A model generated the notes under the pieces. The model made no database searches. It saw only the letters and a program-made list of their open reading frames with translations, and had not been told where the DNA came from. 64,000 nucleotides of DNA, taken from Candidatus Parcubacteria bacterium. Its GTDB lineage: Bacteria; Patescibacteriota; Minisyncoccia; Phycocordibacterales; CAIZLB01. The stretch is taken from NCBI GenBank assembly GCA_043760135.1, contig JAYUPL010000007.1, positions 64,106-128,105 on the forward strand, written 5' to 3'. Made by a program: the position numbers and the translations under genes. Shown here piece by piece: positions 18,412 to 51,080 of this stretch (position 1 is its first letter; each line of letters begins with the position of its first letter).

Positions 18412-18774
18412 ATGAATGAAAATAACACAGACAAAGAAAAAGATTTAATTGTAAAACTAGGTGAAATATTTTGGTGCTATTTGGGTGTAAACGTTGGTTC
18501 AGAACAAAACGGAAGTGGAACTGATAAAACTAGGCCAGTATTAATTATTAATAAGTTTTCAGAGAAATTTTTTCTCGGAGCACCATTGACTAGTAAAAAA
18601 CATAAAGGCGATTGGTATGTAAAAATATCCTTTAATGATTCCTGTGTAATATTAAATCAAGTTAGGCCTATTGATATAAAAAGATTAATAGATAAAGTTG
18701 GGCAAATATCCGAAGAAGATCTAGAAAATATTTTATATAAATATGTTGATCTTATAAAACACAAAAAACACTAA
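18412..18774 (+). CDS. MazF/PemK-family endoribonuclease toxin-like protein (solitary)
   Basis: GEIFWCYLGVNVGSEQNGSG...RPVLIIN; APLTSKKHKGDWYVKI; ILNQVRPIDIKRL; paralog of 458..850. Confidence 0.6.
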   Translation: MNENNTDKEKDLIVKLGEIFWCYLGVNVGSEQNGSGTDKTRPVLIINKFSEKFFLGAPLTSKKHKGDWYVKISFNDSCVILNQVRPIDIKRLIDKVGQISEEDLENILYKYVDLIKHKKH

Positions 18775-22092: not shown

Positions 22093-23847
22093 ATGACCAA
22101 CCTAAATTTTTGTGGTAAAATCAGGGATATGCAAGACGAAAAGAAACAAAACGACATAACCTATTTTGGTGTTACTGATGCCCGTGGAAAACAAGTAAAA
22201 TTCGGTATCAGAAAAGAGGACCGTCTTCGTCATATGTATGCTATTGGTAAAACTGGTATGGGTAAATCAACTTTACTTGAAAATATGGCCATTCAAGACA
22301 TTCAAAATGGTGAAGGAATGGCTTTCCTCGACCCACACGGTAAAACCGCTGAATTGCTCTTAGAATTCGTTCCAGAGCATCGTATAAAGGACGTTATATA
22401 CTTTGCACCTTTTGATCTAGAGCACCCCGTAGCATTGAACGTGCTCGAAGATACAGCACTGGGAGATGAATCATCATCAAGTATTCGATCACAATTTATA
22501 GTGTCAGGTCTGATGTCAACCTTTAAGAAAATTTGGAAAGATCAATGGTCAGCTCGTATGGAGTATATTTTGAACTATACACTTTTAGCTTTATTGGAAA
22601 TTCCAGAAGCGACACTTTTGGACGTTAACCGTATGCTCTCAGATAAGACATTTCGTAAAGACGTGATTGATCGACTGAAAGAGCCAACTGTAAAAGCCTA
22701 TTGGGAAAAAGAATTTGCATCGATGACCGACAAGATGGTAGCCGAAGCTGTACCAGCTATTCAAAACAAAGTAGGACAATTTATTTCAAATGCTTTGATT
22801 AGAAATATTATAGGTCAAACAAAATCCTCATTCGATTTTAGACAAGCGATGGATGAGAAAAAAATAATTATTTTTAATCTTTCTATTGGACGTATAGGAG
22901 AAGATGCAGTAAACCTATTGGGATCTCTCTTTGTTACAAAAATATACCTTGCAGCCATGAGTCGTGCTGATATGACTGATAGAGAAATGAAGGACGTTCC
23001 AAACTTCTACTTGTACGTGGATGAGTTCCAAAATTTTATCAATGATTCATTTGCTCAGATTTTGTCTCAAGCTCGTAAGTACAAACTCGGACTTATTGTT
23101 GCGCACCAATATGTAAAGCAAATGTCTGAAATAGTTCATGATGCTATCTTTGGAAACGTCGGGACAATGATTGCGTATCGTATTGGTGCTGACGATGCCG
23201 ATGCATTTGAAAAAGAATTTAAACCAACTTTTTTACCTGAAGATTTTACAAACATTGGTCGTTTTCAAATGTATCTTAAACTTATGATTGATGGAGTAAC
23301 TTCGCCAGCTTTTTCTGCAACGGGTATGGGTCCATGGCCAGAACCAGAGCAAAGTTTTGTGAAAGAGATTATTGAATCATCACGTGCTCTTTATTCACAT
23401 CCAAGAAAAGATGTAGAGGCTCATATTTTAAAGTGGACATTGGGTGGAGATAGGGGCGGTAAAGCTGAGGGTTCTCAACCTAAACCAACAATAGATCAAC
23501 CAAGAAGAATGGAACAACCTCGAACTGAGCCAAGACGTGATGAAAGGCCACGAGAAATAAGTCGCGATCAAAATCGAGAGCCTCGAAGGGAACCTGTTCG
23601 AAATGAAATACGAAATGATAGACCAAGAACAGAATCAAGACCTCCTATGGATCGTCCTGTGCCATTGCATAACCCATTCAAAGTAGCTTTTAAAGAGATA
23701 GAAAAAGTTGATGAACCTGTTAAACAAAAAGAACCTGAAATCATTGATGTGACAAAAGTTCCAGAAATAACATTTGAACCAAAACTTGTAGAAAGAAAAG
23801 AGGTTGATGAGGATACTCTTAAAGACGTTTTAGGTTTGAAGGAGTAA
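22093..23847 (+). CDS. VirD4/TraG/TraD-like type IV coupling-protein ATPase (soluble) with R/E/P-rich low-complexity C-terminal tail
   Basis: Walker A GKTGMGKST; FLDPHG (DPKG-like); YVDEFQNF Walker B; tail RRDERPREISRDQNREPRREP. Confidence 0.5.
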   Translation: MTNLNFCGKIRDMQDEKKQNDITYFGVTDARGKQVKFGIRKEDRLRHMYAIGKTGMGKSTLLENMAIQDIQNGEGMAFLDPHGKTAELLLEFVPEHRIKDVIYFAPFDLEHPVALNVLEDTALGDESSSSIRSQFIVSGLMSTFKKIWKDQWSARMEYILNYTLLALLEIPEATLLDVNRMLSDKTFRKDVIDRLKEPTVKAYWEKEFASMTDKMVAEAVPAIQNKVGQFISNALIRNIIGQTKSSFDFRQAMDEKKIIIFNLSIGRIGEDAVNLLGSLFVTKIYLAAMSRADMTDREMKDVPNFYLYVDEFQNFINDSFAQILSQARKYKLGLIVAHQYVKQMSEIVHDAIFGNVGTMIAYRIGADDADAFEKEFKPTFLPEDFTNIGRFQMYLKLMIDGVTSPAFSATGMGPWPEPEQSFVKEIIESSRALYSHPRKDVEAHILKWTLGGDRGGKAEGSQPKPTIDQPRRMEQPRTEPRRDERPREISRDQNREPRREPVRNEIRNDRPRTESRPPMDRPVPLHNPFKVAFKEIEKVDEPVKQKEPEIIDVTKVPEITFEPKLVERKEVDEDTLKDVLGLKE

Positions 23848-24877
23848 TTTTGTCAAGAGTTTTGTCAAGAATTATTTTTCCACGACGCTCAAATAGCTTG
23901 TGCACAAGATAGGATAGACCAAGTATAAAAATAATCATGGCTGGAAATGATACATATAAAGGTATATTTTTTATACCTGCATAGGTAAATAATATTTTTC
24001 CAATTTGATGATGAAGAAGATATACGGGGTATGTTAAAAGTCCTAGTGTGTTTATATATGTATTATTTGGAATTTTGAATTTATTTAAAGAAATTAACAA
24101 AAAGATGATATAGAAAGATAAGAAATAAAGTGTAATAGTTGTTGGGTTAAATGGTACTCCATAACCTTCACTTAGATATGGGATTCTCCTTAAGGTGAAA
24201 ATAAGAGATGCAATAAGTGTGTTACACAATGCAAATATTCTCCAATTTGTTAAACCTTCTTTATAGACTTTATAAAATATGACTCCAGCGATAAAGTTTG
24301 GAATCCAAACTATTTCAGAGTCGACCACAATCGGGAAGATCAACATTAAAACTGATAAGATGATTGCCATAACTTCAATGTCTTTAAATTTTTTAAAGAG
24401 GAGTGATAAGAAAATAACAAAATAAAATTTCATCTCAACAGTCAGTGTCCAATATGTTCCATCAAGTGGATCAATATTGAAAAAATATGGAAGCATGGTC
24501 ATGCTGGCCCAAAATCGAGGCCATGACATATATGAAGATATTAAATGTCCGCCAAACAATAAAAACAAAGTGGTAATGAGAGCACAAACCCAAAATACAG
24601 GATATAGTCGCCCAACTCTAGATTTGAAAAACCCATAGGCATTTCTACCTTCGGCAGACAGGGAAATGACAAAACCTGAAATGATAAAAAATAAATCTAC
24701 TCCTAAGTATCCATACTGAAATAACTGTCGTAATACTGGGATATCTATATAAGGTATTTCCTTATAATAAAATGAGAATGCATAATGATATACAACCACA
24801 AAAGCCGCTGCAATAAAACGTAATGTGTTTATTGCACCAATCTTTTTAGTGTTTGAGGATTGTGATTCTAATGTCAT
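23819..24877 (-). CDS. Acyltransferase family 3 (OafA/OatA-like) integral membrane O-acyltransferase
   Basis: LRFIAAAFVVVYH...GYLGVDLFFIISGF; about 10 TM helices. Confidence 0.75.
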   Translation of the reverse strand: MTLESQSSNTKKIGAINTLRFIAAAFVVVYHYAFSFYYKEIPYIDIPVLRQLFQYGYLGVDLFFIISGFVISLSAEGRNAYGFFKSRVGRLYPVFWVCALITTLFLLFGGHLISSYMSWPRFWASMTMLPYFFNIDPLDGTYWTLTVEMKFYFVIFLSLLFKKFKDIEVMAIILSVLMLIFPIVVDSEIVWIPNFIAGVIFYKVYKEGLTNWRIFALCNTLIASLIFTLRRIPYLSEGYGVPFNPTTITLYFLSFYIIFLLISLNKFKIPNNTYINTLGLLTYPVYLLHHQIGKILFTYAGIKNIPLYVSFPAMIIFILGLSYLVHKLFERRGKIILDKTLDKITPSNLKRL

Positions 24878-24878
24878 A

Positions 24879-25655
24879 TTATAATTGTACCCAAGTTTTT
24901 GGTAGGATTTCAAGTCTATCAGACGACTCCGTATTAGTCCATTGTTTTGGGGCTATAACTATTTTATGAGGATTCTTGTTGAGATATGCAGCCCACCAAG
25001 AAAATGTTGAGTTGGCAATAATATTATGTGAACACTGACTCATCAACATAAGTTCTTCAGCTTCAGATATGTCCCCATTTGAAACGAAAGTCTCAGCACC
25101 TATCTGTATATTTTTTTTTGCCCATTCGATGTCGTCTGAAAATATAAAAAAATGAGGAGTGTTGAGTTGCGATTTAATATGATGCAAGGCTTTGTAATAA
25201 TACTCTAGATCACATAGTCCGTGGTGACTGTTGTTTACATAATCACCACGACGTATATGAATTGAGACAGAATCAGTTTGTATATTTTTAGCCACTTCTT
25301 GTGCAGCCTGACTTAGGGGATTTTTTAAAGTAAATTCTTTTAGGACTTGATTTTTGATGTCGATAAAATATTTTTCACTTTGATAATAGCTGTAGTTTCT
25401 AGTTATTTTTTGCACAACTTTTTTGAAAATTTTTATAAGCGGATTTACGGGTATTTGTTTAAAATTTTCAGATAAACTAATGTTGAACTTATCTAGAAGG
25501 AAAGGGCGGTGGATATCTTTTCTGGTATTGTTAAAAAATGATGTATCAAATATAATGTGCTTTTTATCAATCAGGGATAATTTTAATCCATATGCATATT
25601 GAAAAAGTTGGTTACCGAGACCGCCTTTGATTGTGATTATTTTTGTTTGTGTCAT
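24879..25655 (-). CDS. GT11 alpha-1,2-fucosyltransferase
   Basis: GGLGNQLFQYA; HIRRGDY; ANSTFSWWAAYL. Confidence 0.85.
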   Translation of the reverse strand: MTQTKIITIKGGLGNQLFQYAYGLKLSLIDKKHIIFDTSFFNNTRKDIHRPFLLDKFNISLSENFKQIPVNPLIKIFKKVVQKITRNYSYYQSEKYFIDIKNQVLKEFTLKNPLSQAAQEVAKNIQTDSVSIHIRRGDYVNNSHHGLCDLEYYYKALHHIKSQLNTPHFFIFSDDIEWAKKNIQIGAETFVSNGDISEAEELMLMSQCSHNIIANSTFSWWAAYLNKNPHKIVIAPKQWTNTESSDRLEILPKTWVQL

Positions 25656-26411
25656 TTATTTTAGTATACTCCTTAGTTTGTCTATGGTTTTGGCGAGTAT
25701 GTATCCATTATACGATTTTTTATATTTTTCTATAATAAGTGCCTGAGTATCTTTCCCTACTTTTATTTTCATGGCATTGCTCTGACTATTATGTTTTCTG
25801 TAGGCAGTTGTGTATTGGTGTAGATTGGCGAACTTATATTTCAGGCCTATTTTAAGCCACAGGTCATAATCTTCCCAGATAGCAAGTCCAACATCATACC
25901 CACCCAAGTTTAATATATCTTCTTTACGATACAATACGCTTGAGTGGCAAAATAGATTTTTCATCAATAGAAGATTCTTAATTATAAAGTTACTTGAAGG
26001 GTATTTTACTTTTTTGATGGTGTGACCTTGTTCATCGACAATAATCATATTTGATCCTATAAGGGTGTGATCTTTGTGCAGGTCCAAGAACTCGTTTTGA
26101 AGAGAAAGTTTGTTGGTATCAATCCAATAATCGTCACTATCGAGCACTGCAACATATTCACCGGTCGACAGAGAAAGACCTTTGTTTCGATTTTTGGTTA
26201 TCCCTAAATTTTCAGAATTTTTAATGTATCTAATTCGAGAGTCTGTGTATGAAGAAATTATCTCCTCTGTATTATCAGTTGAACAATCGTCTACTATAAT
26301 CAATTCCCAATCTTGAAAAGTTTGAAAAAGAACAGAGTCGATGGCTTGTTTTATAAAATGTGCTCGGTTGTACGTACACATTTGTATGCTTATTTTTGGA
26401 GTGTGTGTCAT
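25656..26411 (-). CDS. Glycosyltransferase family 2
   Basis: ISIQMCTYNRAHFIKQAIDSVLFQTFQDWELIIVDDCSTDNT; LDSDD. Confidence 0.8.
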   Translation of the reverse strand: MTHTPKISIQMCTYNRAHFIKQAIDSVLFQTFQDWELIIVDDCSTDNTEEIISSYTDSRIRYIKNSENLGITKNRNKGLSLSTGEYVAVLDSDDYWIDTNKLSLQNEFLDLHKDHTLIGSNMIIVDEQGHTIKKVKYPSSNFIIKNLLLMKNLFCHSSVLYRKEDILNLGGYDVGLAIWEDYDLWLKIGLKYKFANLHQYTTAYRKHNSQSNAMKIKVGKDTQALIIEKYKKSYNGYILAKTIDKLRSILK

Positions 26412-26427
26412 GTGAATTTATTTTAAT

Positions 26428-27156
26428 CTATTTTTTAATAAACCAAAAACATCCACAGCCGTATGTTTCATTTTTTACGAGGGCAGGATTGGCATTCGCT
26501 ATAATTCCGCCTTTTTCTCCAGACTCTGGGATAAGAGAAAATTCTTTTAATTCAAATCCATCAAAGTAGGAAATAATCTGCTCATATGAATAGATGCGGT
26601 GGGCGTTGAACTCAATTTTTGGTTTTCCTACCGGTGTTACGAACAAAAGGTTACCTCCAAGTTGAACTACTCTTTTAAGCTCGTCTATGGCTTTGATATC
26701 ACCTTCAGCATCTATTGGGTCGCCATACCTACCAAGTCCAATATGCTCGATCGTATGCATGCAAGAAATTGACAGAACACTATTATTATCAAATGGGAGA
26801 GAGTGAAGGTTTCCTTCAAGGCTTCGTAGTCCACTTAATTTAAGGTCGGCTGGTCTGTAGTCATAAAAATCCACATCAGTAAAAGCTGAGACGATTCCAC
26901 AGAAATATAAACTCGATGAGATATCAATGTGCTTGATCGGATTTATCTCTTTTACTTTTCGGGCGGCCCATGAAGTGTGATAGACATAATGTCGATCAAA
27001 TCCAGTCTTAATAGTCTTATCTTTTACTTGGGGATAAAAGTCTTTGAAGCTCAGGGAAAAACGATCTGATTTTGCGGCTTTTTTGAAGGCGAAATAATCC
27101 TTCAAGACAAAAGGAGAGAGAATTATTCTGATTGCTTTTTTAATGATTTTTTTCAT
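26428..27156 (-). CDS. SAM-dependent methyltransferase-like protein (DUF268-like)
   Basis: DISCMHTIEHIGLGRYGDPID...LKRVVQLGGNLLF. Confidence 0.45.
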   Translation of the reverse strand: MKKIIKKAIRIILSPFVLKDYFAFKKAAKSDRFSLSFKDFYPQVKDKTIKTGFDRHYVYHTSWAARKVKEINPIKHIDISSSLYFCGIVSAFTDVDFYDYRPADLKLSGLRSLEGNLHSLPFDNNSVLSISCMHTIEHIGLGRYGDPIDAEGDIKAIDELKRVVQLGGNLLFVTPVGKPKIEFNAHRIYSYEQIISYFDGFELKEFSLIPESGEKGGIIANANPALVKNETYGCGCFWFIKK

Positions 27157-27773
27157 TATAAAATATGAATTATGTCTTTGTCGGTAAATACCTTAAGTTT
27201 GAGATTTTTTGATTGCACAAACTCTACCAAATCTTTCATGTGAGGATAATTATCTGTTCCATTAAAAAGTCGAGCATCATCAATCAGTACAACACTCTCA
27301 TCAACCCAATGATTTAAGACAATTTCCAACTCTTTTGATATAGGTGTATGTCCAAAATCTGCACTAGCCTCTGTTATACCTGCTGAATAGTGCGCATCAA
27401 GCCAAAATAATTTTTTAGAAGTGTTGTTTTGCACTATTTTTTCAATCAATAGTCCACTATCTCCTTGAAGGATTTCGACCTGCTTTTTATTTTTAAAATA
27501 TTTTTTAGCTTCATTAGCCAAAGTCTCACTCAATTCGATTGAATAAAGTTTTTTAAAATATTTCTTAACGTAATTTGTCGTAACTCCCAAATAGGTTCCG
27601 GTTTCAATAAAAGTGTCTATGTTGAATAGTTCCTTGGCTGCCAGTATCTTTTCGATTTTATTAATATGAAAAAGCTTGTCTTTGTGTACCGATCGTTTTA
27701 TTTTTTGTATTAAAAATTCTGACTTGATGACAGCTATGTTTCTTTTAATATTGCGTTTTATGTTTTGTATCAT
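27156..27773 (-). CDS. Putative class I SAM-dependent (sugar O-)methyltransferase
   Basis: FIETGTYLGVTT...WLDAHY...VVLIDDA pattern (TylF/CmcI-like). Confidence 0.4.
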   Translation of the reverse strand: MIQNIKRNIKRNIAVIKSEFLIQKIKRSVHKDKLFHINKIEKILAAKELFNIDTFIETGTYLGVTTNYVKKYFKKLYSIELSETLANEAKKYFKNKKQVEILQGDSGLLIEKIVQNNTSKKLFWLDAHYSAGITEASADFGHTPISKELEIVLNHWVDESVVLIDDARLFNGTDNYPHMKDLVEFVQSKNLKLKVFTDKDIIHIL

Positions 27774-28678
27774 TGTTGTGTATTAATTATTTCTAAATAG
27801 TTTTGCACCGAAACTTTGTCTGACAAATTTTCTATACAATACTTTCTGGGATTATAAGCTGAGGCGTTATTCAAAATTGAATCCAGTTGTACATCCAAGG
27901 TCTCTGCGGTGAAGAATCTTCCTGAATCATTTGTTTGATATGGCGCCGCGATCTTTTCGTTAGACCATGCGTATGTGTCATATTGCCAGTCCTTATTTTG
28001 CCAAACCAGCGTTGGGATATTGTATGCCCAAGCCTCTTGAAGGGCTAAGCCTTGACTCTCTGTTTTTTGAAGATAAATTAATACAGATGCGGATAATAGC
28101 TTTTGAAGATAATCCTTTCTAGCATATGTACCATAGGTTATTATATCATATTGTATCTTTTTATCATCTAGCTTTTTAAGGACTTTTTGGTATATTTCTT
28201 CAGGGACATTTTTTTTAAATACTAGGACTTTTTCCCGACTTGAAGTTTCTTCAGGAATTTGAACGCCCGCTGGCCATATTTTTATCTTGTCATTCAGGCT
28301 TGGCTCTAGGTTGATAAACCAGTCTTTGGTCCATTTTGATGGGAAGAGAAGAATGTCTATGTTTTTATCCTGGATGAGGTTTTTGTAATCATATGGGGTT
28401 TGAACGGTTGATGGTCCAACTATCAATTTCTTTATTTTTCCTGCAGATTTTTTATGGACCATCTCCTTTAATATTTCTATACCTGAGAGGACATGAATGG
28501 TGTCATATTTTGGCTTAACCGGATTCACTTCAAATTGGATGTTCAATTCACTCAGTCCTCGAACCAAACTATCCAATACGGCATCAGGTCCAGAATATTT
28601 TCCCAGCATTTTTTTGATAGAATATTTCCAGAATTCTTTTTTGAATATGTTATTTGTTCTTGTGTAGATGGATATCAT
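27770..28678 (-). CDS. Putative glycosyltransferase (GT-B-like C-terminal half)
   Basis: ESQGLALQEAWAYNIPTL resembles the GT1/GT4 E-X7-E region. Confidence 0.4.
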   Translation of the reverse strand: MISIYTRTNNIFKKEFWKYSIKKMLGKYSGPDAVLDSLVRGLSELNIQFEVNPVKPKYDTIHVLSGIEILKEMVHKKSAGKIKKLIVGPSTVQTPYDYKNLIQDKNIDILLFPSKWTKDWFINLEPSLNDKIKIWPAGVQIPEETSSREKVLVFKKNVPEEIYQKVLKKLDDKKIQYDIITYGTYARKDYLQKLLSASVLIYLQKTESQGLALQEAWAYNIPTLVWQNKDWQYDTYAWSNEKIAAPYQTNDSGRFFTAETLDVQLDSILNNASAYNPRKYCIENLSDKVSVQNYLEIINTQQ

Positions 28679-28679
28679 A

Positions 28680-29909
28680 TTACTTTACGGATTCATTGAT
28701 TATGTTTTCATACTTATTGATTATATTTTCAATCAAAAATAATTTCTCACCTTTTTCTTTGGCTTTTTGTCCCATTTCTTTTAACTTTCCTGATTTATGA
28801 AATTCTATAAACTCAATCATGTTTTTTGCGTATTGTTCATAATCACCTTTTTCGGAATATCGACTAAATGAGTCATCAAGGTATTCGAGGTGTGCATTCC
28901 AGATATGTGACTTGTGGGTTAGGATTGGATTTCCAACGAGCATTGATTCCGCAATGTTTAAGCCGAATGATTCACCATCTCTTCTGAAATGAGCCAGTAC
29001 ATCGACAGCTTGGTGAAATACCCAGACATCTTCTTCGAGATAGCTTGGTTCAAGCCAATGCACATTTGGTATCTTGCGTTCGATAACTAGCTTTTTGGCT
29101 GCATCAGCAGGGGACATGATGAGATAATGAATATCCGGATTTGTTTTTATGACAATCTCAAAGGCCAATAGTCCAATAGAATCAAAGATGGAGTCATCCG
29201 CTCTGCCGATTCGCCCAAAGACTAAGTCTGTATCTATGATATTAAATCTTTCTCGCAATGCCTGTGCTTTTTCTGGATTTAAGATAGGTCGCTCAGAAGG
29301 AATATATTGAACAGTAAGTCTATCTTCGCTAACTACTCTTTTTGCTAATTTTTTAACTTCTTCTGATATACAGATGTGTTTTACAATATTATCCTGTACT
29401 GTAAATGAACCAAAAATATTTATAAGAATTATTGGAATATTTCTTATATTGATAAGTGGGTAAATTGTTTGTCCGGGAGTTGCGGTTATTATGCAATGTA
29501 TTTTATTATCATTGATAATATTTTCCATCTGTGGATTCATGTCATTGACTATGTATGGCCAGTTTGGTACAACGGAGGCATATGTAAAAGGAATAATCTT
29601 TACATTTGTATGTTGAAGGTAGGCAAGTCGGCTTTTCTCATTTTCCGTTGCATGCATAATAAAAACATTATATTTAGTTGGATCTAGATATTTAGCAATC
29701 ATTTGCAGATTCTTTTCAGTGCCTCCAAAGCTGAGTGCAGTTTTGTGATAGATTAATACATTTGTCTTACTATTTGAACCTTTTTTATTTTGAAATATTC
29801 TATCGTTTTTGTTTGTTTCAGTAAATCTTACATAGAAAAAAGCTGATAATTCAATCGTCTTTATGATTAAATGTCTTACAGGATTTGGTAATATGTAAAA
29901 AAATTTCTT
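28680..29909 (-). CDS. Glycosyltransferase family 4-like
   Basis: GESFGLNIAESMLVGNPIL (EX7E); start set at MKKFFYIL. Confidence 0.55.
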   Translation of the reverse strand, partial: KKFFYILPNPVRHLIIKTIELSAFFYVRFTETNKNDRIFQNKKGSNSKTNVLIYHKTALSFGGTEKNLQMIAKYLDPTKYNVFIMHATENEKSRLAYLQHTNVKIIPFTYASVVPNWPYIVNDMNPQMENIINDNKIHCIITATPGQTIYPLINIRNIPIILINIFGSFTVQDNIVKHICISEEVKKLAKRVVSEDRLTVQYIPSERPILNPEKAQALRERFNIIDTDLVFGRIGRADDSIFDSIGLLAFEIVIKTNPDIHYLIMSPADAAKKLVIERKIPNVHWLEPSYLEEDVWVFHQAVDVLAHFRRDGESFGLNIAESMLVGNPILTHKSHIWNAHLEYLDDSFSRYSEKGDYEQYAKNMIEFIEFHKSGKLKEMGQKAKEKGEKLFLIENIINKYENIINESVK

Positions 29910-29913
29910 CATT

Positions 29914-30774
29914 TTATAAAATAATATTCTTATGGTTATCTTTATGCATAAACAAGAACATCCGTACACCTTTAGCTGGTGGATTATCTAGATCAAATTT
30001 CTTTAAGGTGCCATACTCGAGTATTTGAGTGCTGTATTCCAACGATTCGAGTAGTCTAATTGTTTCAGAAAAATTTTGGTTTTTGTATAGTCCATCACGC
30101 CCATCTTTTGTGTGACAAATTTCAACGAATAGTATTGGTTTATGTGTCTTTATGGAATCTAAGGCTCCTTTTAATACATCAAACTCAAATCCTTCAACGT
30201 CAATTTTAATAAAATTAATATGAGAAATCCCTTTTTCTTTTACAACATCATCCAGTCTTTTGATGGGGATGTTTAACTTATTCTCTGTATTCGTTGTGAA
30301 CTCTTTGATGAGAGTTGTGCCTGAACCAGCTGTATATATATCTATATTTCCGCTAGTTTCGCCTAATGCACATTCATTAATATCGACATTAGACAATCTA
30401 TTTAAATATACACTTTCTTTTATTGAATCGAAGTGAAGACTGATAGGCTCAAAGCTGTATGTTTTTGAATTTGGAAACATATAGGCTGACATTATTCCAT
30501 AATATCCGGTATTGGCACCTATATCTAGTAAGACAAAGTCAGATGAAAGTTGTGTCAGTATTTTTTGAACCAAAATGGTTTCTTCTTGCTCAACTACTCC
30601 GTTTGCTGCGATTCCATAAGCTATGTCGTTGATATCATACAGATTGCCACAATACCAAAAACCATCTTTTGATTTTACTGCGTGCGGATAGCTCAGGTTT
30701 GCTGTTGATATGAGTAGTATTTTTCTTTTTATTAAAATTCCTACAGCATTGATTAGTTTGTGTATTATTTTCAT
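29914..30774 (-). CDS. FkbM-family methyltransferase
   Basis: DIGANTGYY...FEP...IDFIKIDVEGFEFDVLKGA. Confidence 0.8.
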   Translation of the reverse strand: MKIIHKLINAVGILIKRKILLISTANLSYPHAVKSKDGFWYCGNLYDINDIAYGIAANGVVEQEETILVQKILTQLSSDFVLLDIGANTGYYGIMSAYMFPNSKTYSFEPISLHFDSIKESVYLNRLSNVDINECALGETSGNIDIYTAGSGTTLIKEFTTNTENKLNIPIKRLDDVVKEKGISHINFIKIDVEGFEFDVLKGALDSIKTHKPILFVEICHTKDGRDGLYKNQNFSETIRLLESLEYSTQILEYGTLKKFDLDNPPAKGVRMFLFMHKDNHKNIIL

Positions 30775-31512
30775 TTATTTTAATTTATTCTTTACAAATC
30801 TAATCACCCTGTTTGTTTTATTTTTCAAGCCGTCCAGTATCCACAGTGTTTTTTCTTTTGTAGTGGGTGTAAAATAGTTTATTTTTGAACCTGCTTTAAC
30901 TTTTCTACCAAAGACACCACTTTGATAACCTGTATTTTCGAGGCTAAAAAACTCCAATTGCCAGTCAGGTAAATTTTTGGCCCACCAGTTTTTACTTCTG
31001 ATATGCCACATGCTTTGCTGAATGTTTCTATCATATCTTTCGTCAAAAAAGAGTGCTGATCCTTCAGGTAGGATATTTACCTCCTTTAAAAAATCCTTTA
31101 CATAAAAATCCTTGATGTGTGACAAAACAGTTGAGGTAGTAATGAAAGCTGGTTCGTTGAGTTTTAACATTTTCATTCCATCAACCATATCCATGTTTAC
31201 AAACTCAAGATTTGAGAAATTTCCCCGTTCGGTGATAATTTGCTTATTTATTTCGATTATTTCTTTCACAGGCTCTATTCCAATAACTCTTTTAAATAGG
31301 GGTGATGTCTTGTGCATGAGCCATGCAGAACCGCACCCGATGTCTACGTGCGTGTGAATATTATTGAGCATACTTATTGCTTTTTCAAAGCCTAGTTTTT
31401 CGAACATCTTACCATCTTCCTGCTTTTTTAAAATATTTTGCACGTATTCGGGCGTATGTAGTTTCAAATAGTCTTGTTCATGTTCTTTAAAGCTTTGCAA
31501 ATCTTTCTTCAT
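30775..31512 (-). CDS. Class I SAM-dependent methyltransferase
   Basis: Motif I VDIGCGSAWL. Confidence 0.65.
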   Translation of the reverse strand: MKKDLQSFKEHEQDYLKLHTPEYVQNILKKQEDGKMFEKLGFEKAISMLNNIHTHVDIGCGSAWLMHKTSPLFKRVIGIEPVKEIIEINKQIITERGNFSNLEFVNMDMVDGMKMLKLNEPAFITTSTVLSHIKDFYVKDFLKEVNILPEGSALFFDERYDRNIQQSMWHIRSKNWWAKNLPDWQLEFFSLENTGYQSGVFGRKVKAGSKINYFTPTTKEKTLWILDGLKNKTNRVIRFVKNKLK

Positions 31513-31516
31513 GTTT

Positions 31517-32422
31517 TTATTTTATTTTTTTTATTTGGTTTTTAATGGTGTTTAATGTTACAAGCCATTTCGGAAATTTTTTTGGCTCAGGCTTTCTTCC
31601 TGTTTCTTGTATGAATAATTCCTCAAGTTCTGATAAATGCCATATGTCTAAGGGTTCAAAGTAGAGTGCTCCATGTTCCTTAAGTTTTGATACTATCTCA
31701 TCTCTTTGCCAGATATTATCTTGTTGTATTAACGGCATTGTTTTCGGCTGTTTCTCAGAATTGTTTATCTCCCTACAAGTAAATTCCTTTGTGTGTCCGT
31801 ACATGTTGTTGATTCGCTTGGCTGATTTTTCTTTTTTTAAAAATTCAGAGATCATGTACCATACTTGCTTATACTGACAGCGTTTTTGGTCAATAAATTG
31901 ATAATGGAATATGAGATTATTACCTTCAATCCTTTTTGCCTCGATTCCAGTTGTTGGTACTCTTGGTATGCCAATGAACCCTGGTGCAAATACTGAAACT
32001 CCGTCATCGCAAAATGCAAAAGTTTTGAAAATCTGCGGTTTCTTAAATGTAGTTTTTGAACAGAGATTAAGCCATTCAAGTTCTAGTGATTGTCCAGGCT
32101 TTAAGGACTGCAGAATTTCTCTTGCGTTTTTTTGAAATTCTTCTGAGCAGGCCTCATCCGCATCAAGTGCTATGATGTGAGTGGCACCTTGCTCTCGTGC
32201 AGCCTGCAATAGTCGGGTACGAATCTCGTATTCTTTCCACCCTACGTTTGTAGAAGTTTCAAAGGGAATAATTGTACAATTATATTTTTTTAAAATTTCT
32301 AAAGTAGAGTCGGTTGAGTTGTCGTCAATAGTGATAATGCTATCAGCAAATGATAGGGATGTGAGACAATGTTCTAAACACCACTCTTCATTTTTAACAG
32401 GTAATAGTGCAATAATTTTCAT
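31517..32422 (-). CDS. Glycosyltransferase family 2
   Basis: IIALLPVKNEE...IITIDDNSTDST; DxD ALDADE. Confidence 0.7.
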   Translation of the reverse strand: MKIIALLPVKNEEWCLEHCLTSLSFADSIITIDDNSTDSTLEILKKYNCTIIPFETSTNVGWKEYEIRTRLLQAAREQGATHIIALDADEACSEEFQKNAREILQSLKPGQSLELEWLNLCSKTTFKKPQIFKTFAFCDDGVSVFAPGFIGIPRVPTTGIEAKRIEGNNLIFHYQFIDQKRCQYKQVWYMISEFLKKEKSAKRINNMYGHTKEFTCREINNSEKQPKTMPLIQQDNIWQRDEIVSKLKEHGALYFEPLDIWHLSELEELFIQETGRKPEPKKFPKWLVTLNTIKNQIKKIK

Positions 32423-33352
32423 TTATTTAATAAGTAATTTTTTAATATATGTTTTAAGTACATATATTAATTTATTATATCCAGTTGTTGATTTGAGTAA
32501 GGTTTTAAAGATACTTTTGTGTATTTCGTTTTCAGTGTTTTGAATAATAAGTACATAGTTGGGTACGAATTTTTTAACAGGGAAGGATTCATTAAAGAAA
32601 GTTATGTATGGGATCGAATATTCTACAGTTCGTGGCAAGAAGGTTAGGTCTATTTTATCAAAAATTCCGTACCGCAACTCGATAACTGTTCGTTCTGCAG
32701 GTTGCTTTGAGTTTGGTCTCGTACTGGCTCCTTTGCCTTCGTTTAAGTAATATCCTAAAAGTTCTTTGGCAATTGCTACTTTTCCGTTATATGCCAGTCT
32801 GATAGAGAGGTCAAAATCTGCTCCTGATTTTAATTGTTCATCAAAGTATCCAGCTTTTTCACATAGACTTTTCTTAAACATAAGAAAAGGACCAAAGACC
32901 ATTGATCTCTTGTATTCCTCCGGGTCAATATTTCCATGTTTAACAACTGAACCTTCAGTGGCTCCAAATTTTCTTACAATAGTGTAATCGCCAATAGCAA
33001 TATCAGCATCATTTCCGATAATCGCATTTACTTGGGATTCGATTGAGTTAGGTGTTCGTAAATCATCAACATTCCAGATAGTAACCAGCTCTCCTGAAGC
33101 CTCTTTGATACATCTATTCATCGATGTTCCAATAGGATCAACTTTTTCAATAATAATGTGTTTTATTTTATTTGGGTATTTTGCATCAAATTCTTTCACC
33201 CAGTTTATCTCTTCCTGATCAGGCTCATTATGGTCAAGAACCACTTCTAAATTATCAAAATACGTTTGCTGAGGTAACTCATCAAGGAATTTTTTTAAAT
33301 ATGGCTTCATTCTGAAGCATGGAGTGATGGTGCTGACTTTTAGTTTTGACAT
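32423..33352 (-). CDS. Glycosyltransferase family 2
   Basis: VSTITPCFRMKPYLKKFLDEL.QQTY..LEVVLDHNEPD; NVDD. Confidence 0.65.
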   Translation of the reverse strand: MSKLKVSTITPCFRMKPYLKKFLDELPQQTYFDNLEVVLDHNEPDQEEINWVKEFDAKYPNKIKHIIIEKVDPIGTSMNRCIKEASGELVTIWNVDDLRTPNSIESQVNAIIGNDADIAIGDYTIVRKFGATEGSVVKHGNIDPEEYKRSMVFGPFLMFKKSLCEKAGYFDEQLKSGADFDLSIRLAYNGKVAIAKELLGYYLNEGKGASTRPNSKQPAERTVIELRYGIFDKIDLTFLPRTVEYSIPYITFFNESFPVKKFVPNYVLIIQNTENEIHKSIFKTLLKSTTGYNKLIYVLKTYIKKLLIK

Positions 33353-33360
33353 TATAGGTA

Positions 33361-34161
33361 TTATAGATTTTTATGTTTTTTCATATCTTCTACCATTTTT
33401 GCAAGGCCTTTTTGTAAATCTACTCTCGGAGACCATCCTGGAATCTTTCCTTTGATAGGTGTGTCAGGGGTTGATCCCAGTTTTTCACCTGGAATAACTT
33501 TTGCGCCGGTGAGTTCTGCAATGATATTGGCCAAATCTATTACCCTAACCCACTCAAAACTGGTAACATCGTGAATTCCTTTAAGGTTATCTTCCATGGC
33601 TTTGTACCAAGCTTCGGTTACGTCATCAATATGTATAAAATGTCTTTTTTCCTCGCCAGAAGTCAACATACGGATCTCCCCGGTAGTCAGAGCTTGTGAT
33701 ACAAAGTCGGAAACAACGTGACTTCTGATTGATTCTTCTTCGATTGGACCATATACGTTCCACTGTCTAATAAATACACCTCCTAAAAGGCGTGTCCACA
33801 CCTCTCCAAGTCTTTTTGTAACACCATATACGGTGTCATATTCTTCGGCAAGTTGAGATGAAATAAAGAGAAATGGTTTCTTGCTTTTTTCCAATTGCCC
33901 CATTACGTTGTGTAATAGCTTTAAGTTTCCGCTTAGTTGACCCAATTGCAGGTCTTGGTGATATAAAAACTTGGCACCACCAACGTCCCAGGCCAAGAAA
34001 TAAACTCTATCTATTTCGTCAAAATTTATTTGTGCAATTCGAGCATCTTCGTGCTCACCGTTTTTTATATCAAATACAACAACTTCCTCACCTTTAGATT
34101 TTAAGAAGTGTACAAAAGGTTTTCCTATAAAGCCTTCTCCTCCAATTACTAGATTTCTCAT
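33361..34161 (-). CDS. NAD-dependent epimerase/dehydratase (SDR)
   Basis: GGEGFIG Rossmann motif; YGVTK catalytic YxxxK. Confidence 0.85.
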   Translation of the reverse strand: MRNLVIGGEGFIGKPFVHFLKSKGEEVVVFDIKNGEHEDARIAQINFDEIDRVYFLAWDVGGAKFLYHQDLQLGQLSGNLKLLHNVMGQLEKSKKPFLFISSQLAEEYDTVYGVTKRLGEVWTRLLGGVFIRQWNVYGPIEEESIRSHVVSDFVSQALTTGEIRMLTSGEEKRHFIHIDDVTEAWYKAMEDNLKGIHDVTSFEWVRVIDLANIIAELTGAKVIPGEKLGSTPDTPIKGKIPGWSPRVDLQKGLAKMVEDMKKHKNL

Positions 34162-34258
34162 GATATAGATATATAATTTTAGTTAGTTAATTTGATAAAT
34201 TTTACCACACTATTTGGTTTTAAGAAAATTGTTTAATTATGCGTTTTATTGGATATTA

Positions 34259-35554
34259 TTATGACCGAATCATTGCTATGATCCTGTTTCGAGGTACTTT
34301 AAACAGCATTACACTCAATGGTCCAAGAGTGTAAGAGGTGAGGGTGGCGAATGCTGAGCCGTTTATTCCATATTCAGGTATGAGTAGGATGTTTAATACA
34401 ACATTCAACACCATCCCAATTATTGACATATATAGAATAATAGAAGAAAGCTTTTCTGCTACTAAATACTGCATAATAACCATTCCAAGACTTATACCTA
34501 CTCCTGACCATATATAGAGTTGTAATACTTGGTATCCCGCAATAAAATTTACACCGAAGACTAAGTGTAAAATTGGTTTGGCATAAATACTTCCAATTAT
34601 TGCAATAATCGAAGAAGTTAGAATTAAAAAACCTGTTAATTTTAAAACTCTTTTTGTATAGATATATGTGTCAGTCATTTGAGCATTCAATATAGAAGGA
34701 AATAAAGTTGATACAATAATTGCCGGTATAAAATACCAAGCTTCAGATAACGTAACTGCTGCACTATATAAGCCAACAGCCTCGGCATTTATGTAGTTTT
34801 TGAGTAAAACTTGATCAACTCTGGAGTATATGAGGATAAAAATACTTGAAAACATAAGTGGTAACGATGCTTTTATTATTTCCTTGGCGATGGATAGTTT
34901 AAAATTCCATTTTTTTAATTTTCCATAAAATTTAGAATAATATATCAGAAAAAAAGTTCCATATAATAGTGGTTCTATTATTAAAACAAAGCCTAAAAAT
35001 AGGACCCCTTTATTCATGAACACGATGCTAAGTTTTAATAATGCTAAAATTATGCTCACTGATATTGTTATAAGTGAAAGTTTTTTGTTTTCAAGTCGTG
35101 CCTGAAAGGTATAAGTGATAACACTGAAAGCTTGAAAAATATATGAAATTGAGATAATGAATATTAATTTTCCTTCTAAGGGGTTTGTGGTAAAAAATAA
35201 TGAAACTAAAAAAGTTGTAACCAAAGCTAAAAAACCACCACTCATTTTCAATATAAAAGAAGTTCCAAGAATATCAGCCTCTTTCTCTGGATTCTTAATG
35301 ATCTCTCTGTATAAGATTTGGTCTATACCCAAAGTTGCAATAAAAGAAAATAATCCGACAAAGCTAATTGCATAGCTCAGCGTTCCGTATTTTTCAGGTC
35401 CTAGGTATCGGGCGACTATGGCTATTACAAAAAAGGATATACCCAAGCTTATTACTCGAGAAAAGAAAAGCCATCCAATGTTTTGGAAATACTTCTGGAA
35501 GCCTGCATGCTCCCATTTTTCTGTGAGGTATTTTTTTAAATCAACTATTTTCAT
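34259..35554 (-). CDS. Wzx-type oligosaccharide flippase (MOP superfamily polysaccharide biosynthesis protein)
   Basis: About 12-14 TM helices; typical Wzx/PST organisation; start set at MKIVDLKK. Confidence 0.8.
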   Translation of the reverse strand: MKIVDLKKYLTEKWEHAGFQKYFQNIGWLFFSRVISLGISFFVIAIVARYLGPEKYGTLSYAISFVGLFSFIATLGIDQILYREIIKNPEKEADILGTSFILKMSGGFLALVTTFLVSLFFTTNPLEGKLIFIISISYIFQAFSVITYTFQARLENKKLSLITISVSIILALLKLSIVFMNKGVLFLGFVLIIEPLLYGTFFLIYYSKFYGKLKKWNFKLSIAKEIIKASLPLMFSSIFILIYSRVDQVLLKNYINAEAVGLYSAAVTLSEAWYFIPAIIVSTLFPSILNAQMTDTYIYTKRVLKLTGFLILTSSIIAIIGSIYAKPILHLVFGVNFIAGYQVLQLYIWSGVGISLGMVIMQYLVAEKLSSIILYMSIIGMVLNVVLNILLIPEYGINGSAFATLTSYTLGPLSVMLFKVPRNRIIAMIRS

Positions 35555-35590
35555 ATAACTTTCTTTAAAATACATGTTATAATACTCCGC

Positions 35591-37744
35591 ATGAATACAC
35601 AAATACAAGACATTAAAAAAGCTCTAAGATTCATTACTATTATATTGATCGGAGCGACATTATTAACCCCTTTTATCTTCTCCGGCGAATTATTCTTTCC
35701 ATATATCACGAGCAAAGCATTTTTTATGAGATTGATGATCGTATTGTCTACAGTATCTTATATAGGTTTGGCATTAATTGATAAAAATTCACGTCCTAAA
35801 AAATCAGCCATGCTCTATGCAATGGGTGCTTTTATGGTCGTACTTCTGTTGGCAACATTAAATAGTGTGAATCCTACACGAAGTCTCTGGTCAAATTTTG
35901 AAAGAATGGAAGGTTTGGTAACTATGTTATATATGGCTGCATTATTTGTTATGTCTGCCTCAACACTCAGAAAGAAAGAGTGGACGCATATGATGCATTT
36001 TTCTCTCCTGATATCCGTTGTTACAGGTTTGCATGCGTTGGGTGATGCGAGTCCTCGTATATCTGGTCACCTCGGTAACTCTTCGTATCTTGGGGTGTAT
36101 GCTTTAATGCATGTATTTTTTGGCCTATTGGGTGCCGCGATGGTATTTAGAGGTAATAGAGAAAGGGAATTATTAGAATCAGGCGAACATAAGGCTGCCC
36201 ATAGATTAACAACAAATAATTACATGTCTATCGCACTATATATAGCGTTAGCTGTATTTAACCTATTTATCTTATTTAAAACAGGAACAAGAGGAGCTTT
36301 TGTTGGACTGGTTGTTGGTTTGATATTGTCGTCTATCTATTTGGTCTGGAAAGAGAAGAATAAGATCATCCGCTTCGGGGCTATGGGTTTTTTGATTGCT
36401 GTTGTGATGTCTGTTTCTTTTTTAGGTATTTTTAAGCATTCATCTTTCGTTGAGAATAATGTCTTGCTGTCTCGTTTTGCAGCTTTGGTTACAACAGACT
36501 ATAAAGCAGTATTGAACAACCAAGGTGAAAGTCGTACAATGATCTGGAAAATGGCATTTGAAGGGGTGAAAGAAAGACCTCTACTTGGTTGGGGGCAAGA
36601 TAATTTTGGGTATGTGTTTGCAAAATACTATAACCCTCACATGTATGCACAAGAGCAGTGGTTTGATAGATCTCACAATGTGTTTATGGATTGGTTGATT
36701 GCTGCGGGTATATTAGGTCTCGCAGGATACTTGTCTCTGTTTGTTATCGCACTGTATTTTATATTTTCTAAAAAATCTAAATTTACCATTATTGAAAAAT
36801 CAATATGGCTTGGATTGCTAGCATCATATTTTATACATAATATATTCGTATTTGATAACCTTTCAAGTTATGTACTATTCTTCCTGATATTGGGTTATAT
36901 AAATGATAGGTATACACACGATAGGAATGAAAAGGTAGATAGATCTTTATCTGAAAATGAAATGAATAAAATTATTCTTATAAGTATAATTTCACTTGGA
37001 GCGTTGTCTTATATTTCTTATCACACAATCTTAAGACCATATTCTCAAAATATTGCCTTGATAGAAGTTCTGAGAAATACACAAACTGTGGGAGTTTCTA
37101 AAACTATTGATAAAGATTTTGAAAATGTTTTACAAAAAGGTCCGACTGGAAAGTTTGAAATATTTGAACAAATATCAACTGCATTCCCAAAGATTGCAAA
37201 TGAACCTACACTATCTACTACAACGAAACAAAATCTATTTAATGTGTATAGAAAAATTGTTGCTGAATATGATAAAGAAATAAGTAATGATGCTCGATAT
37301 AATTATTTTGTATCTAATACATATAAAACTATCGGTATGAACGATCAAGCGTTGGTGTATATAAATAAGGCATATGATTTATCACCAACAAAGCAAACCT
37401 TCGCATACAGTAAAGCTATTTTATTGATAGATACAGGTGATATAAATGGTGCCATAGCGTTGCTAAAAAAAGCATATGAAGATGCACCAGAGAATATTAC
37501 TGCTTACGGATATTATGTTGGGACACTTTCTGAATTGGCGAAGAAGAATAATTATGCTTCAGCCGACATGGATAAGATCGCACAAGTATTAGCTGAAGGG
37601 TATACTAAAAATGGTTATGACTTAATTATTAAAAAAGAATTCTGGGATTTATTTACAAATCAAAAAGTAAAAACTGTGTTAGTAAATAAAATTTCCGAGT
37701 TAGTACCAGAATTAAAGTTAGGAATTATGAACGCATCGAGATAA
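35591..37744 (+). CDS. O-antigen ligase/polymerase (Wzy_C) family membrane protein fused to a C-terminal TPR-like domain
   Basis: Multi-TM N-terminal half with RSHNVFMDWLIAAGILG (Wzy_C-like); C-terminal about 250 aa soluble repeat region. Confidence 0.7.
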   Translation: MNTQIQDIKKALRFITIILIGATLLTPFIFSGELFFPYITSKAFFMRLMIVLSTVSYIGLALIDKNSRPKKSAMLYAMGAFMVVLLLATLNSVNPTRSLWSNFERMEGLVTMLYMAALFVMSASTLRKKEWTHMMHFSLLISVVTGLHALGDASPRISGHLGNSSYLGVYALMHVFFGLLGAAMVFRGNRERELLESGEHKAAHRLTTNNYMSIALYIALAVFNLFILFKTGTRGAFVGLVVGLILSSIYLVWKEKNKIIRFGAMGFLIAVVMSVSFLGIFKHSSFVENNVLLSRFAALVTTDYKAVLNNQGESRTMIWKMAFEGVKERPLLGWGQDNFGYVFAKYYNPHMYAQEQWFDRSHNVFMDWLIAAGILGLAGYLSLFVIALYFIFSKKSKFTIIEKSIWLGLLASYFIHNIFVFDNLSSYVLFFLILGYINDRYTHDRNEKVDRSLSENEMNKIILISIISLGALSYISYHTILRPYSQNIALIEVLRNTQTVGVSKTIDKDFENVLQKGPTGKFEIFEQISTAFPKIANEPTLSTTTKQNLFNVYRKIVAEYDKEISNDARYNYFVSNTYKTIGMNDQALVYINKAYDLSPTKQTFAYSKAILLIDTGDINGAIALLKKAYEDAPENITAYGYYVGTLSELAKKNNYASADMDKIAQVLAEGYTKNGYDLIIKKEFWDLFTNQKVKTVLVNKISELVPELKLGIMNASR

Positions 37745-37756
37745 AAACCTTTGATA

Positions 37757-37792
37757 AAAAAATCCCATTCAAGGAAAGAATGGGATTTTTTC
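37757..37792 (+). terminator. Rho-independent terminator (ATCCCATTC-aaggaaa-GAATGGGAT followed by TTTTTTC)
   Basis: Hairpin plus T-run after the ligase-like gene. Confidence 0.65.
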
Positions 37793-37952
37793 TATCTCAG
37801 GTTTAGAAGAGGTAATCATACAGATAAAGGTTCTTTTCAAACTTTGAAATACAAATTTTAATTTTTTTAAAAATATTTTCACAAAGAAAAAAATAAAAAT
37901 AAAAAAAATATTTAAAAAATAATTATCCACAAAATATTTTCATAAAAAATGT

Positions 37953-38069: not shown

Positions 38070-38204
38070 ATGGCAGTAAAAAAAGCAGCAAAAAAAGTTG
38101 TAAAAAAAGCAGTTAAAAAAGCAGCTCCTAAAAAAGTTGTAAAAAAAGCAGCTCCTAAAAAAGCAGTTAAAAAAACTGTAAAAAAAACAGCAAAAAAAAG
38201 ATAG
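38070..38204 (+). CDS. Small (44 aa) Lys/Ala-rich histone H1/Hc1-like basic protein; not in the ORF track
   Basis: MAVKKAAKKVVKKAVKKAAPKKVVKKAAPKKAVKKTVKKTAKKR; promoter upstream, strong terminator downstream. Confidence 0.5.
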   Translation: MAVKKAAKKVVKKAVKKAAPKKVVKKAAPKKAVKKTVKKTAKKR

Positions 38205-38223
38205 TTCACTCTATCCCACAAAC

Positions 38224-38266
38224 AAAAGTACGTAAGATGTAAAAATCCTACGTACTTTTGTTTTAC
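38224..38266 (+). terminator. Rho-independent terminator (AAAAGTACGTA...TACGTACTTTT followed by GTTTT)
   Basis: 8-11 bp stem plus T-run. Confidence 0.6.
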
Positions 38267-49391: not shown

Positions 49392-49406
49392 TATATAATT
49401 ATACAT

Positions 49407-49874: not shown

Positions 49875-49904
49875 TTAAAATCATAAACTAATCAAAAAAA
49901 ATAT

Positions 49905-51073: not shown

Positions 51074-51080
51074 TATATAA

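Follow-up and report, generated by a model that had tools for sequence, protein, structure and literature searches.

A surface-glycan gene cluster beside a conserved, putative Wzy_C-TPR glycan transferase in a Candidatus Parcubacteria bacterium

What kind of surface glycan would be made by a dense run of glycosyltransferase (GT) and methyltransferase genes in an uncultured, ultra-small Candidatus Parcubacteria bacterium, and to what would it be transferred? We addressed this question for the locus at positions 23819-37744 of contig stretch JAYUPL010000007.1 (the window, meaning the whole 64-kb stretch of DNA analysed; all positions are window coordinates), whose right-hand gene encodes a Wzy_C membrane domain fused to a tetratricopeptide repeat (TPR) domain. 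Glycosylation in the candidate phyla radiation (CPR), or Patescibacteria, is essentially unstudied experimentally: a 2024 preprint on Saccharibacteria pili called glycosylation processes in CPR "unexplored", and a search of full-text literature pairing CPR or Parcubacteria with O-antigen-ligase or S-layer terms found no papers. We scanned the translations of the open reading frames (ORFs) in the window with Pfam and NCBIfam. It is likely, in our view, that the locus produces a lipid-linked glycan, with Wzx as its flippase and the Wzy_C-TPR enzyme as its transferase. The explanation taken whole, in which a surface glycan assembled on a lipid carrier is moved en bloc to an extracytoplasmic and most probably protein acceptor, has somewhat better than even chances, and for the protein acceptor as a claim in itself we stop a little short of even.

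The locus is a real and correctly delimited surface-glycan biosynthesis cluster, and its organisation is operon-like. Its ends coincide exactly with ORF boundaries, as the original prediction, made from the DNA alone, had placed them. That prediction had counted 13 genes, twelve of them consecutive on the minus strand, and five GTs. The ORF listing shows 14 genes, with 13 consecutive minus-strand ORFs (23819-35608) and a divergent plus-strand ORF (35591-37744); the gene that had been passed over is 27770-28678 (302 aa), and with it the GTs number six (one GT11, three GT2 and two GT4-like). Four genes resembling S-adenosylmethionine (SAM) methyltransferases and one acyltransferase-3 (AT3) gene accompany them. 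We adopted ATG starts at 24877 (acyltransferase), 29912 (GT4) and 35575 (wzx), which match the genes called on L001, a public contig of identical sequence. With these likely starts, the junctions comprise overlaps of 4 and 1 nt and gaps of 0, 0, 0, 1, 1, 1, 4, 8 and 16 nt, so the tight packing described earlier holds with one exception, a 97-nt gap between the gene for a short-chain dehydrogenase/reductase (SDR) and wzx. The wzx and Wzy_C-TPR (ligase) genes diverge from starts 15 nt apart. Pfam also supported every enzyme family that had been named (GTs, methyltransferases, acyltransferase-3, epimerase, flippase, and Wzy_C with TPR), while NCBIfam gave no more specific names, its matches falling far below equivalog cut-offs.

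The ligase gene (35591-37744, +) encodes a WaaL/PglL-type GT-C membrane domain with 13 transmembrane helices (Wzy_C, PF04932, 1.3e-21) and, in the same ORF, a C-terminal helical/TPR domain at about residues 481-717 (TPR_19, 2e-6), which agrees with the ligase-TPR fusion originally described. An AlphaFold (AF2) model (pLDDT, the predicted local distance difference test, 86) showed 13 transmembrane helices, with about 80 residues looping out between helices 9 and 10, and an all-helical C-terminal repeat domain. Using Foldseek, the best and only membrane-protein match in the PDB was WaaL (7tpg_B, E 5.8e-5, TM-score 0.60 on the target), and the remaining fold matches were all TPR proteins. PDB sequence searches with the full-length protein or its profile returned TPR proteins only, the membrane domain being swamped; WaaL was recovered by the fold search. 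Short loops predicted to lie inside carried 16 Lys and Arg residues compared to 3 in those predicted to lie outside, and because of this positive-inside count we predict that the N-terminus is inside and that the large loop and the TPR domain are outside, where the latter would help to bind a protein substrate.

Three residues of the Wzy_C-TPR protein, R234, R315 and H362, were invariant across 20 homologues down to 36% identity. In a profile alignment by hhalign that spanned 151 columns they fell on R215, R288 and H338 of E. coli K-12 WaaL, although the probability of that alignment, 0.46%, is non-significant alone; the residue mapping therefore leans on the consistency of this alignment with what Pfam and Foldseek gave. 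Against E. coli O16 Wzy, the profile aligned over 16 columns only, again with a non-significant probability. The protein also contains H362-N-x9-G-xx-G, which corresponds to H[NSQ]x9Gxx[GTY], a pattern that we take to define the WaaL-type motif, and the family has a further invariant pair, H416-x5-D422. In E. coli WaaL, R215, R288 and H338 are functionally important and are shared with PglL as R224, R298 and H349 (PMC3643930). Together, the model and the alignments point to an Arg/Arg/His active site in a WaaL/PglL-type GT-C fold.

To place the locus among its relatives, we scanned GTDB with each species represented by one genome; 589 or more candidate stretches encode a relative of the Wzy_C-TPR protein. 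Eighty loci were kept and searched with the window proteins as phmmer and blastp probes, and nine related loci, whose Wzy_C-TPR homologues are 38-72% identical, were annotated with Pfam gene by gene. None of the 80 kept loci was assigned outside Patescibacteria, some carrying only the generic label "bacterium", and the family is essentially confined to this group. The right-hand anchor was the same in all nine annotated loci: the Wzy_C-TPR gene is followed by secA; most of the loci have an ORF of 44-49 aa between the two, and three have an additional gene. SecA begins no more than 3 kb downstream of Wzy_C-TPR in 38 of the 49 loci with enough flank. The upstream cassettes differed greatly in size, the smallest being a lone GT11 gene and the largest holding 11 or more unrelated genes for GTs and methyltransferases. 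Their contents included GT6 with three FkbM genes (L002) or fewer (L006); GT8, WavE, GDPD, a nucleotidyltransferase and a HAD hydrolase (L005); GT25, GT-D and GT32 (L007 and L088); a GT10 fucosyltransferase with TylF (L089); and a single GT11 gene (L090). The cassettes of L007, L088, L023-25 and L087 are bordered on the left by a VirD4-like gene, and in the last four GT11 stands alone between this gene and the ligase. The gene directly upstream of the ligase in all nine annotated relatives encodes Wzx, a GT, GT11 or an epimerase. Between species, then, this is a hypervariable locus, with non-homologous gene content inside conserved flanks (VirD4-like on the left; Wzy_C-TPR, small ORF and SecA on the right). 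The accessory, variable character first proposed for it was borne out at this level, and full syntenic conservation in all relatives was not observed, the cassettes differing widely among the nine annotated loci.

The relatives also shared parts of the window cassette in blocks. L004 matches its left half (acyltransferase 75% identical, GT11 61%, GT2 69%, DUF268 86%, compact GT4 63%) and L008 its right half (GT4 71%, GT2c 89%, SDR 93%, Wzx 64%). Ligase identity across the compared species was 33-78%, and among closer relatives Wzx was 32-64% identical where the ligase was 63-78% identical. Orthologues of DUF268 (55-86%) and of GT2c and the SDR (89-93%), found in L004, L008, L012, L022 and L052, were more alike than the ligases of the same genome pairs and roughly equalled or surpassed SecA in conservation, which suggests that cassette blocks are exchanged laterally among compositionally similar Paceibacterota relatives. 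Composition, proposed earlier as a check on the locus, gave no sign of foreign origin in GC or codons: GC content is 0.336 in the cluster and 0.356 in the remainder of the window, the cluster is no tetranucleotide outlier, and a foreign origin judged by composition was rejected.

We propose the following pathway. An oligosaccharide would be built on a polyprenyl-phosphate carrier at the cytoplasmic face by the six GTs, a role that we infer from their families, after initiation by a phosphoglycosyltransferase that would have to be encoded elsewhere in the genome. Its decoration would fall to as many as four SAM methyltransferases and to the AT3 acyltransferase, likewise judged by family, and the short SDR probably tailors a nucleotide sugar. 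Wzx would carry the lipid-linked glycan to the outer face, where the Wzy_C-TPR enzyme would move it en bloc, without polymerisation, to an extracytoplasmic acceptor, most likely Ser, Thr or Tyr residues of secreted surface proteins, as for WsfB. Protein O-glycosylation is favoured because lipid A-core is not expected in CPR bacteria, which are not known to make it, and because the enzyme is predicted to have an outward-facing protein-binding domain. Since the transferase is conserved while cassettes change, its donor specificity is probably relaxed. From the fixed transferase and the exchanged cassette it would therefore follow that related species display different glycans through one donor-promiscuous enzyme.

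The closest precedent for the Wzy_C-TPR enzyme appears to be WsfB, the S-layer O-oligosaccharyltransferase (O-OTase) of Gram-positive Paenibacillus alvei, which has a Wzy_C domain followed by a C-terminal TPR (PMC2943079); the likeness is one of domain architecture as published. The slg loci of P. alvei and Geobacillus stearothermophilus (WsfB and WsaB) also belong to monoderm hosts without lipopolysaccharide (LPS), and their glycan gene clusters adjoin the transferase, with assembly on a lipid carrier and then transfer to a surface protein, as proposed here. The G. stearothermophilus system exports its polymer by an ABC transporter, whereas the present locus encodes Wzx, and the transferase family described here differs further in being essentially restricted to Patescibacteria and anchored beside secA. 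Among proteobacterial O-OTases, PglL, PglS and TfpO share the Wzy_C domain and the conserved Arg/Arg/His residues (PMC3643930), and PglS has 13 transmembrane helices and a periplasmic C-terminal domain (PMC12800693), an arrangement like that predicted for the Wzy_C-TPR protein. Their relaxed donor specificity fits one transferase serving many cassettes. Unlike them, the Wzy_C-TPR protein has no PglL_A match and a TPR-like helical repeat as its C-terminal domain, and its H416-x5-D422 pair is a candidate counterpart of H400-x3-E404 in PglL. WaaL (Cupriavidus metallidurans, 7TPG, and E. coli K-12) offers the best fold match, the Arg/Arg/His alignment and the H[NSQ]x9Gxx[GTY]-type motif, but lacks a C-terminal soluble domain, acts on a lipid A-core acceptor that is not expected in CPR, and is only marginally similar in sequence (hhalign probability below 1%). 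At the level of the locus, enterobacterial O-antigen (rfb) and capsule loci likewise place hypervariable GTs, methyltransferases, an acyltransferase and Wzx between conserved flanks and share mosaic blocks between species, as the left and right halves do here with L004 and L008. They differ in that the present locus lacks a dedicated wzy, wzz and an initiating transferase, contains few nucleotide-sugar synthesis genes, shows no GC deviation and has the transferase itself as one conserved flank.

These comparisons leave other readings to be weighed. One is a classical Wzx/Wzy pathway leading to a capsule, an exopolysaccharide or a secondary cell-wall polymer. In it the repeat-unit polymerase would be the Wzy_C-TPR protein, its TPR domain a scaffold or chain-length module, and attachment or release would fall to proteins from outside the locus, such as those of the LCP family. 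The Pfam Wzy_C family does cover some Wzy polymerases, a Wzx flippase lies divergently adjacent, TPR domains are known in polysaccharide export scaffolds, going by the reference list of PMC2943079, and the cluster holds no second polytopic Wzy-like protein, which makes the Wzy_C-TPR protein its sole polymerase candidate. Polymerases, however, are normally specific for a repeat unit and vary with the cassette, whereas this protein retains 63-78% identity where both Wzx and the cassettes have been replaced, and in several genomes it adjoins a lone GT11. No Pfam family of the Wzz/PCP (polysaccharide co-polymerase) chain-length regulators was present in the cluster or in the annotated related cassettes, and the family profile resembles WaaL, over 151 columns that include the three key residues, more than E. 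coli Wzy with its 16. A conserved Wzy_C-TPR protein beside a diverging Wzx and cassette fits a donor-promiscuous ligase or O-OTase better than a repeat-unit polymerase, and we consider the polymerase reading quite unlikely. The label "Wzx/Wzy-type" attached to the locus at first is thus borne out only for its Wzx half: apart from the Wzy_C-TPR protein no candidate polymerase, and no Wzz or initiating transferase, was found in the cluster, and the conserved Wzy_C-TPR anchor points to a ligase or O-OTase.

The same lipid-carrier route could also end on a non-protein acceptor, with the Wzy_C-TPR protein acting as a WaaL-like ligase onto a glycolipid, a lipoglycan anchor or the cell wall in a cell with no outer membrane. 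In its favour, no solved structure other than WaaL matches the membrane domain, the WaaL Arg/Arg/His set is conserved, PglL-specific Pfam models fail to match and pilin adjacency is rare. Set against this, no CPR bacterium is known to make lipid A-core, and the large TPR domain, predicted to be extracytoplasmic, is a protein-binding module held in common with the protein O-OTase WsfB; PglS-type OTases, moreover, also combine 13 transmembrane helices with a C-terminal domain, while the solved WaaL is shorter (403 residues). We judge a non-protein acceptor unlikely. A third reading takes the ligase to be a housekeeping envelope gene kept beside secA and functionally unrelated to the cassette, which would occupy an adjacent recombination hotspot. 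The ligase does have its own terminator and a possible -10-like hexamer, TATAAT at 35579-35584, 6 nt before its start codon, and its synteny with secA holds regardless of cassette content. In 15 of the 49 loci the upstream region contains no homologue of any window cassette gene, but phmmer probes miss unrelated GT families, so this count overstates absence. A glycan flipped by Wzx while linked to lipid needs a transferase at the outer face, for which Wzy_C-TPR is the sole candidate, and a glycan-synthesis gene precedes the ligase directly in each of the nine relatives annotated with Pfam. An unrelated housekeeping function therefore seems improbable to us.

Several observations weigh against the transfer pathway proposed above, in addition to the non-significant profile probability. 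The ligase gene forms its own transcription unit and in some genomes sits beside very small cassettes, and for these reasons its link to this cassette draws on adjacency and pathway logic. The GT-C fold alone would be compatible with a polymerase, as Wzy belongs to the same broad GT-C class. Neither PglL_A nor Wzy_C_2 matched the protein in Pfam at E<=0.01, and the missing PglL_A match, like the scarcity of nearby pilins, speaks against placing it in the PglL family proper. An initiating phosphoglycosyltransferase (PF00953 or PF02397) was sought without success in the cluster, the other scanned ORFs of the window and the nine annotated related cassettes. Over the same range no Wzz, no second Wzy-like membrane protein and no genes for GDP-fucose synthesis were recognised, and the prediction of fucose depends on a GDP-fucose source. 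No acceptor was identified in the window, and LPS genes were likewise absent from its 64 kb. Only three of the 80 related loci have pilin-motif ORFs at a distance of up to about 10 kb from the ligase, compared to 21 of 31 PglL homologues with an adjacent pilin gene (PMC3643930). Gene context accordingly lends no support to an OTase dedicated to pilins, and the S-layer or pilin glycosylation suggested by the original prediction stays conjectural. Finally, one methyltransferase assignment is weak. The gene at 27156-27773 (-) encodes a probable class I SAM methyltransferase of 205 aa on the strength of a PF00398 (RrnaAD-like) match (4e-7) that is above the gathering score and limited to the SAM-binding N-terminal part (residues 38-105); homologues occur in four other loci.

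The remaining minus-strand genes with Pfam matches were assigned to families as follows. At its left end, 23819-24877 encodes an OafA/Oac-type membrane O-acyltransferase without an SGNH domain (Acyl_transf_3, PF01757, 2e-24); the ORF as listed reaches a TTG at 24913, and the ATG at 24877, which abuts the GT11 stop, is the likelier start. The GT11 gene (24879-25655) encodes an alpha-1,2-fucosyltransferase-like protein that matches Glyco_transf_11 (PF01531, 1e-42) over residues 9-256 of 258. At residue 133 it has HIRRGDY, an intact HxRRGDY motif, the nucleotide-sugar-binding motif of GT11 alpha-1,2-fucosyltransferases. The three GT2 genes are 25656-26411, EpsE/TuaG/WcaA-like (Glycos_transf_2, PF00535, 4e-35; NCBIfam matches all below equivalog cut-offs), 31517-32422 (PF00535 7e-9; PF13704 6e-8) and 32423-33352, the GT2c shared with L008 (PF00535 3e-11). 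A larger GT4/GT1-group enzyme is encoded at 28680-29912 (Glycos_transf_1, PF00534, 5e-7), with its E-x7-E motif as ESFGLNIAE; it is 410 aa long from ATG 29912, as in the L001 gene call. The remaining methyltransferases are of the DUF268 type (26428-27156; PF03269 2e-16, Methyltransf_11 2e-3), the FkbM family, RfbT-like (29914-30774; Methyltransf_21, PF05050, 3e-20; TIGR01444 1.5e-29), and class I (30775-31512; Methyltransf_25 2.5e-6, also Methyltransf_23 and Methyltransf_11). The SDR gene (33361-34161) encodes a short extended-SDR epimerase or reductase of 266 aa (Epimerase, PF01370, 1e-18) with weak and partial NCBIfam matches that include heptose epimerase and GDP-fucose synthase (Fcl, 2e-7, far under the cut-off). 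The Wzx-type MOP flippase (34259-35575) is 438 aa long from ATG 35575 (Polysacc_synt, PF01943, 1e-31; PF13440 1e-19). A fucosylated and heavily methylated glycan, as foreseen at the outset, is a reasonable prediction from the GT11 motif and the four SAM-methyltransferase-like genes, to which AT3 would add acylation.

The gene missing from the original count, 27770-28678 (-), matches no Pfam family above threshold. Among 5.8 billion proteins searched, 98 homologues of its 302-aa product were found, every one unnamed or "hypothetical", and the few with an organism label are from Patescibacteria or Parcubacteria, except two records also labelled Arenimonas sp. An E-x7-E pair, E207 and E215, is invariant in a 28-member alignment of the family. 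The AlphaFold (AF2) model was confident (pLDDT 95.3) and gave 98 PDB fold matches at E<=1e-3, of which the top 50 listed are GT-B glycosyltransferases and their relatives (MshA, WaaG, BshA, SenB and methylmannose-polysaccharide mannosyltransferase). Because of the invariant E-x7-E, the confident model and the GT-B fold matches, we assign the protein, on model and motif, as a compact, GT4-like, retaining GT-B enzyme, the sixth glycosyltransferase of the locus and a member of a family so far unannotated.

The boundary genes are context rather than parts of the cluster. On the left, a VirD4/TraG-like coupling ATPase gene (22093-23847, +; PF02534, PF10412) converges on the acyltransferase gene; their 3' ends overlap by 29 nt (23819-23847) with no terminator between them, and RseP and a D-Ala-D-Ala carboxypeptidase are encoded further left. 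On the right, secA (38304-40579, +) was recognised by its SecA domains and its synteny with the Wzy_C-TPR gene. A terminator-like hairpin with an A-tract and a T-tract follows the ligase gene (37753-37796, +; minimum free energy -19.7 kcal/mol, z = -4.9), and a second hairpin flanked by such tracts follows the small ORF (38220-38263, z = -7.0). Because of these hairpins, the ligase, the small ORF and secA appear to be separate transcription units, and conserved gene order, rather than co-expression, may explain why the ligase and secA stay together. A consensus scan for promoters and terminators was uninformative in this AT-rich DNA, with 57 promoter-like sites compared to 70 in shuffles, and it missed the hairpin after the ligase. 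Around the divergent starts, the position of the TATAAT hexamer is such that the ligase mRNA may be leaderless; a GGAG ribosome-binding site for wzx, 9 nt upstream of ATG 35575, lies inside the first ligase codons, and a promoter-like site for wzx (35666-35639) falls inside the ligase coding region. The small ORF between ligase and secA (38070-38204, +) encodes 44 residues rich in Lys and Ala (MAVKKAAKKVVKK...) without a Pfam match. It is preceded by a promoter-like TTGCAT/TATAAT and flanked by strong hairpins, and its product may bind nucleic acids as a small basic protein. ORFs of 44-49 aa occupy the equivalent position in six loci (L002, L004, L006, L007, L089 and L090).

Elsewhere in the window, the gene at 1888-4686 (+) encodes a secreted protein of 932 aa with 12 YVTN beta-propeller repeats, Thr/Ser/Asn-rich, with a Gly/Ser linker and a peptidoglycan-binding-like tail; it is a candidate surface (glyco)protein. 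At 49047-51386 (+), far from the VirD4-like ATPase gene, five tandem genes encode small membrane proteins resembling TrbC pilins; Pfam T4SS_pilin (TrbC/VirB2-like) is matched by two of them, and the N-terminal regions of several are repeated or rich in Ser, Thr or Asn. The gene at 54803-55309 (+) encodes a type IV pilin, which has the N-terminal methylation motif GFTLIEI, and lies near small uncharacterised ORFs at 53771-54748. The beta-propeller protein, the five TrbC-like pilins and the type IV pilin are plausible acceptors in the window, and nothing ties them to the locus. The stretch at 51000-53700 has a GC content of 0.42-0.45 compared to a background of about 0.35; it contains genes for a 358-aa membrane protein (52116-53192) and a 181-aa ORF, followed by tRNA genes for Leu, Lys and Ala at 53368-53639, and could be an integrated element or compositional noise. 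A MazF/PemK-type toxin gene is present at 18412-18774 (+). RelB (L006, 14910-15140) and RelB/YafQ (L002, 15151-15690; L090, 1209-1748) toxin-antitoxin genes, which the window lacks, lie just downstream of secA in L002 and L006 and upstream of the ligase in L090; they are small mobile insertions in otherwise syntenic DNA.

Loci that combine GTs and methyltransferases with Wzx and a Wzy_C-family transferase are ordinary as a type. What lifts this one above the routine is its CPR host, the widely conserved Wzy_C-TPR anchor beside secA with exchangeable cassettes, and the compact GT4-like family, which until now was only "hypothetical" and can now be annotated. The transferase, with R234, R315 and H362 as clear putative catalytic residues, offers one testable handle, and the defined hotspot for glycan-cassette exchange another. 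CPR cells live attached to others, so their surface glycans likely matter for host recognition and phage defence. We put forward, as a tentative and rather doubtful extension, a lineage-wide, general system of O-glycosylation in Paceibacterota, in which one conserved and donor-promiscuous Wzy_C-TPR OTase, encoded beside secA, would capture Sec-exported proteins through its external TPR domain while swap-in cassettes vary the coat. If such a system exists, each species, and perhaps each strain, would wear a different methylated and fucosylated coat, giving these ultra-small episymbionts serotype-like control of host attachment or phage evasion.

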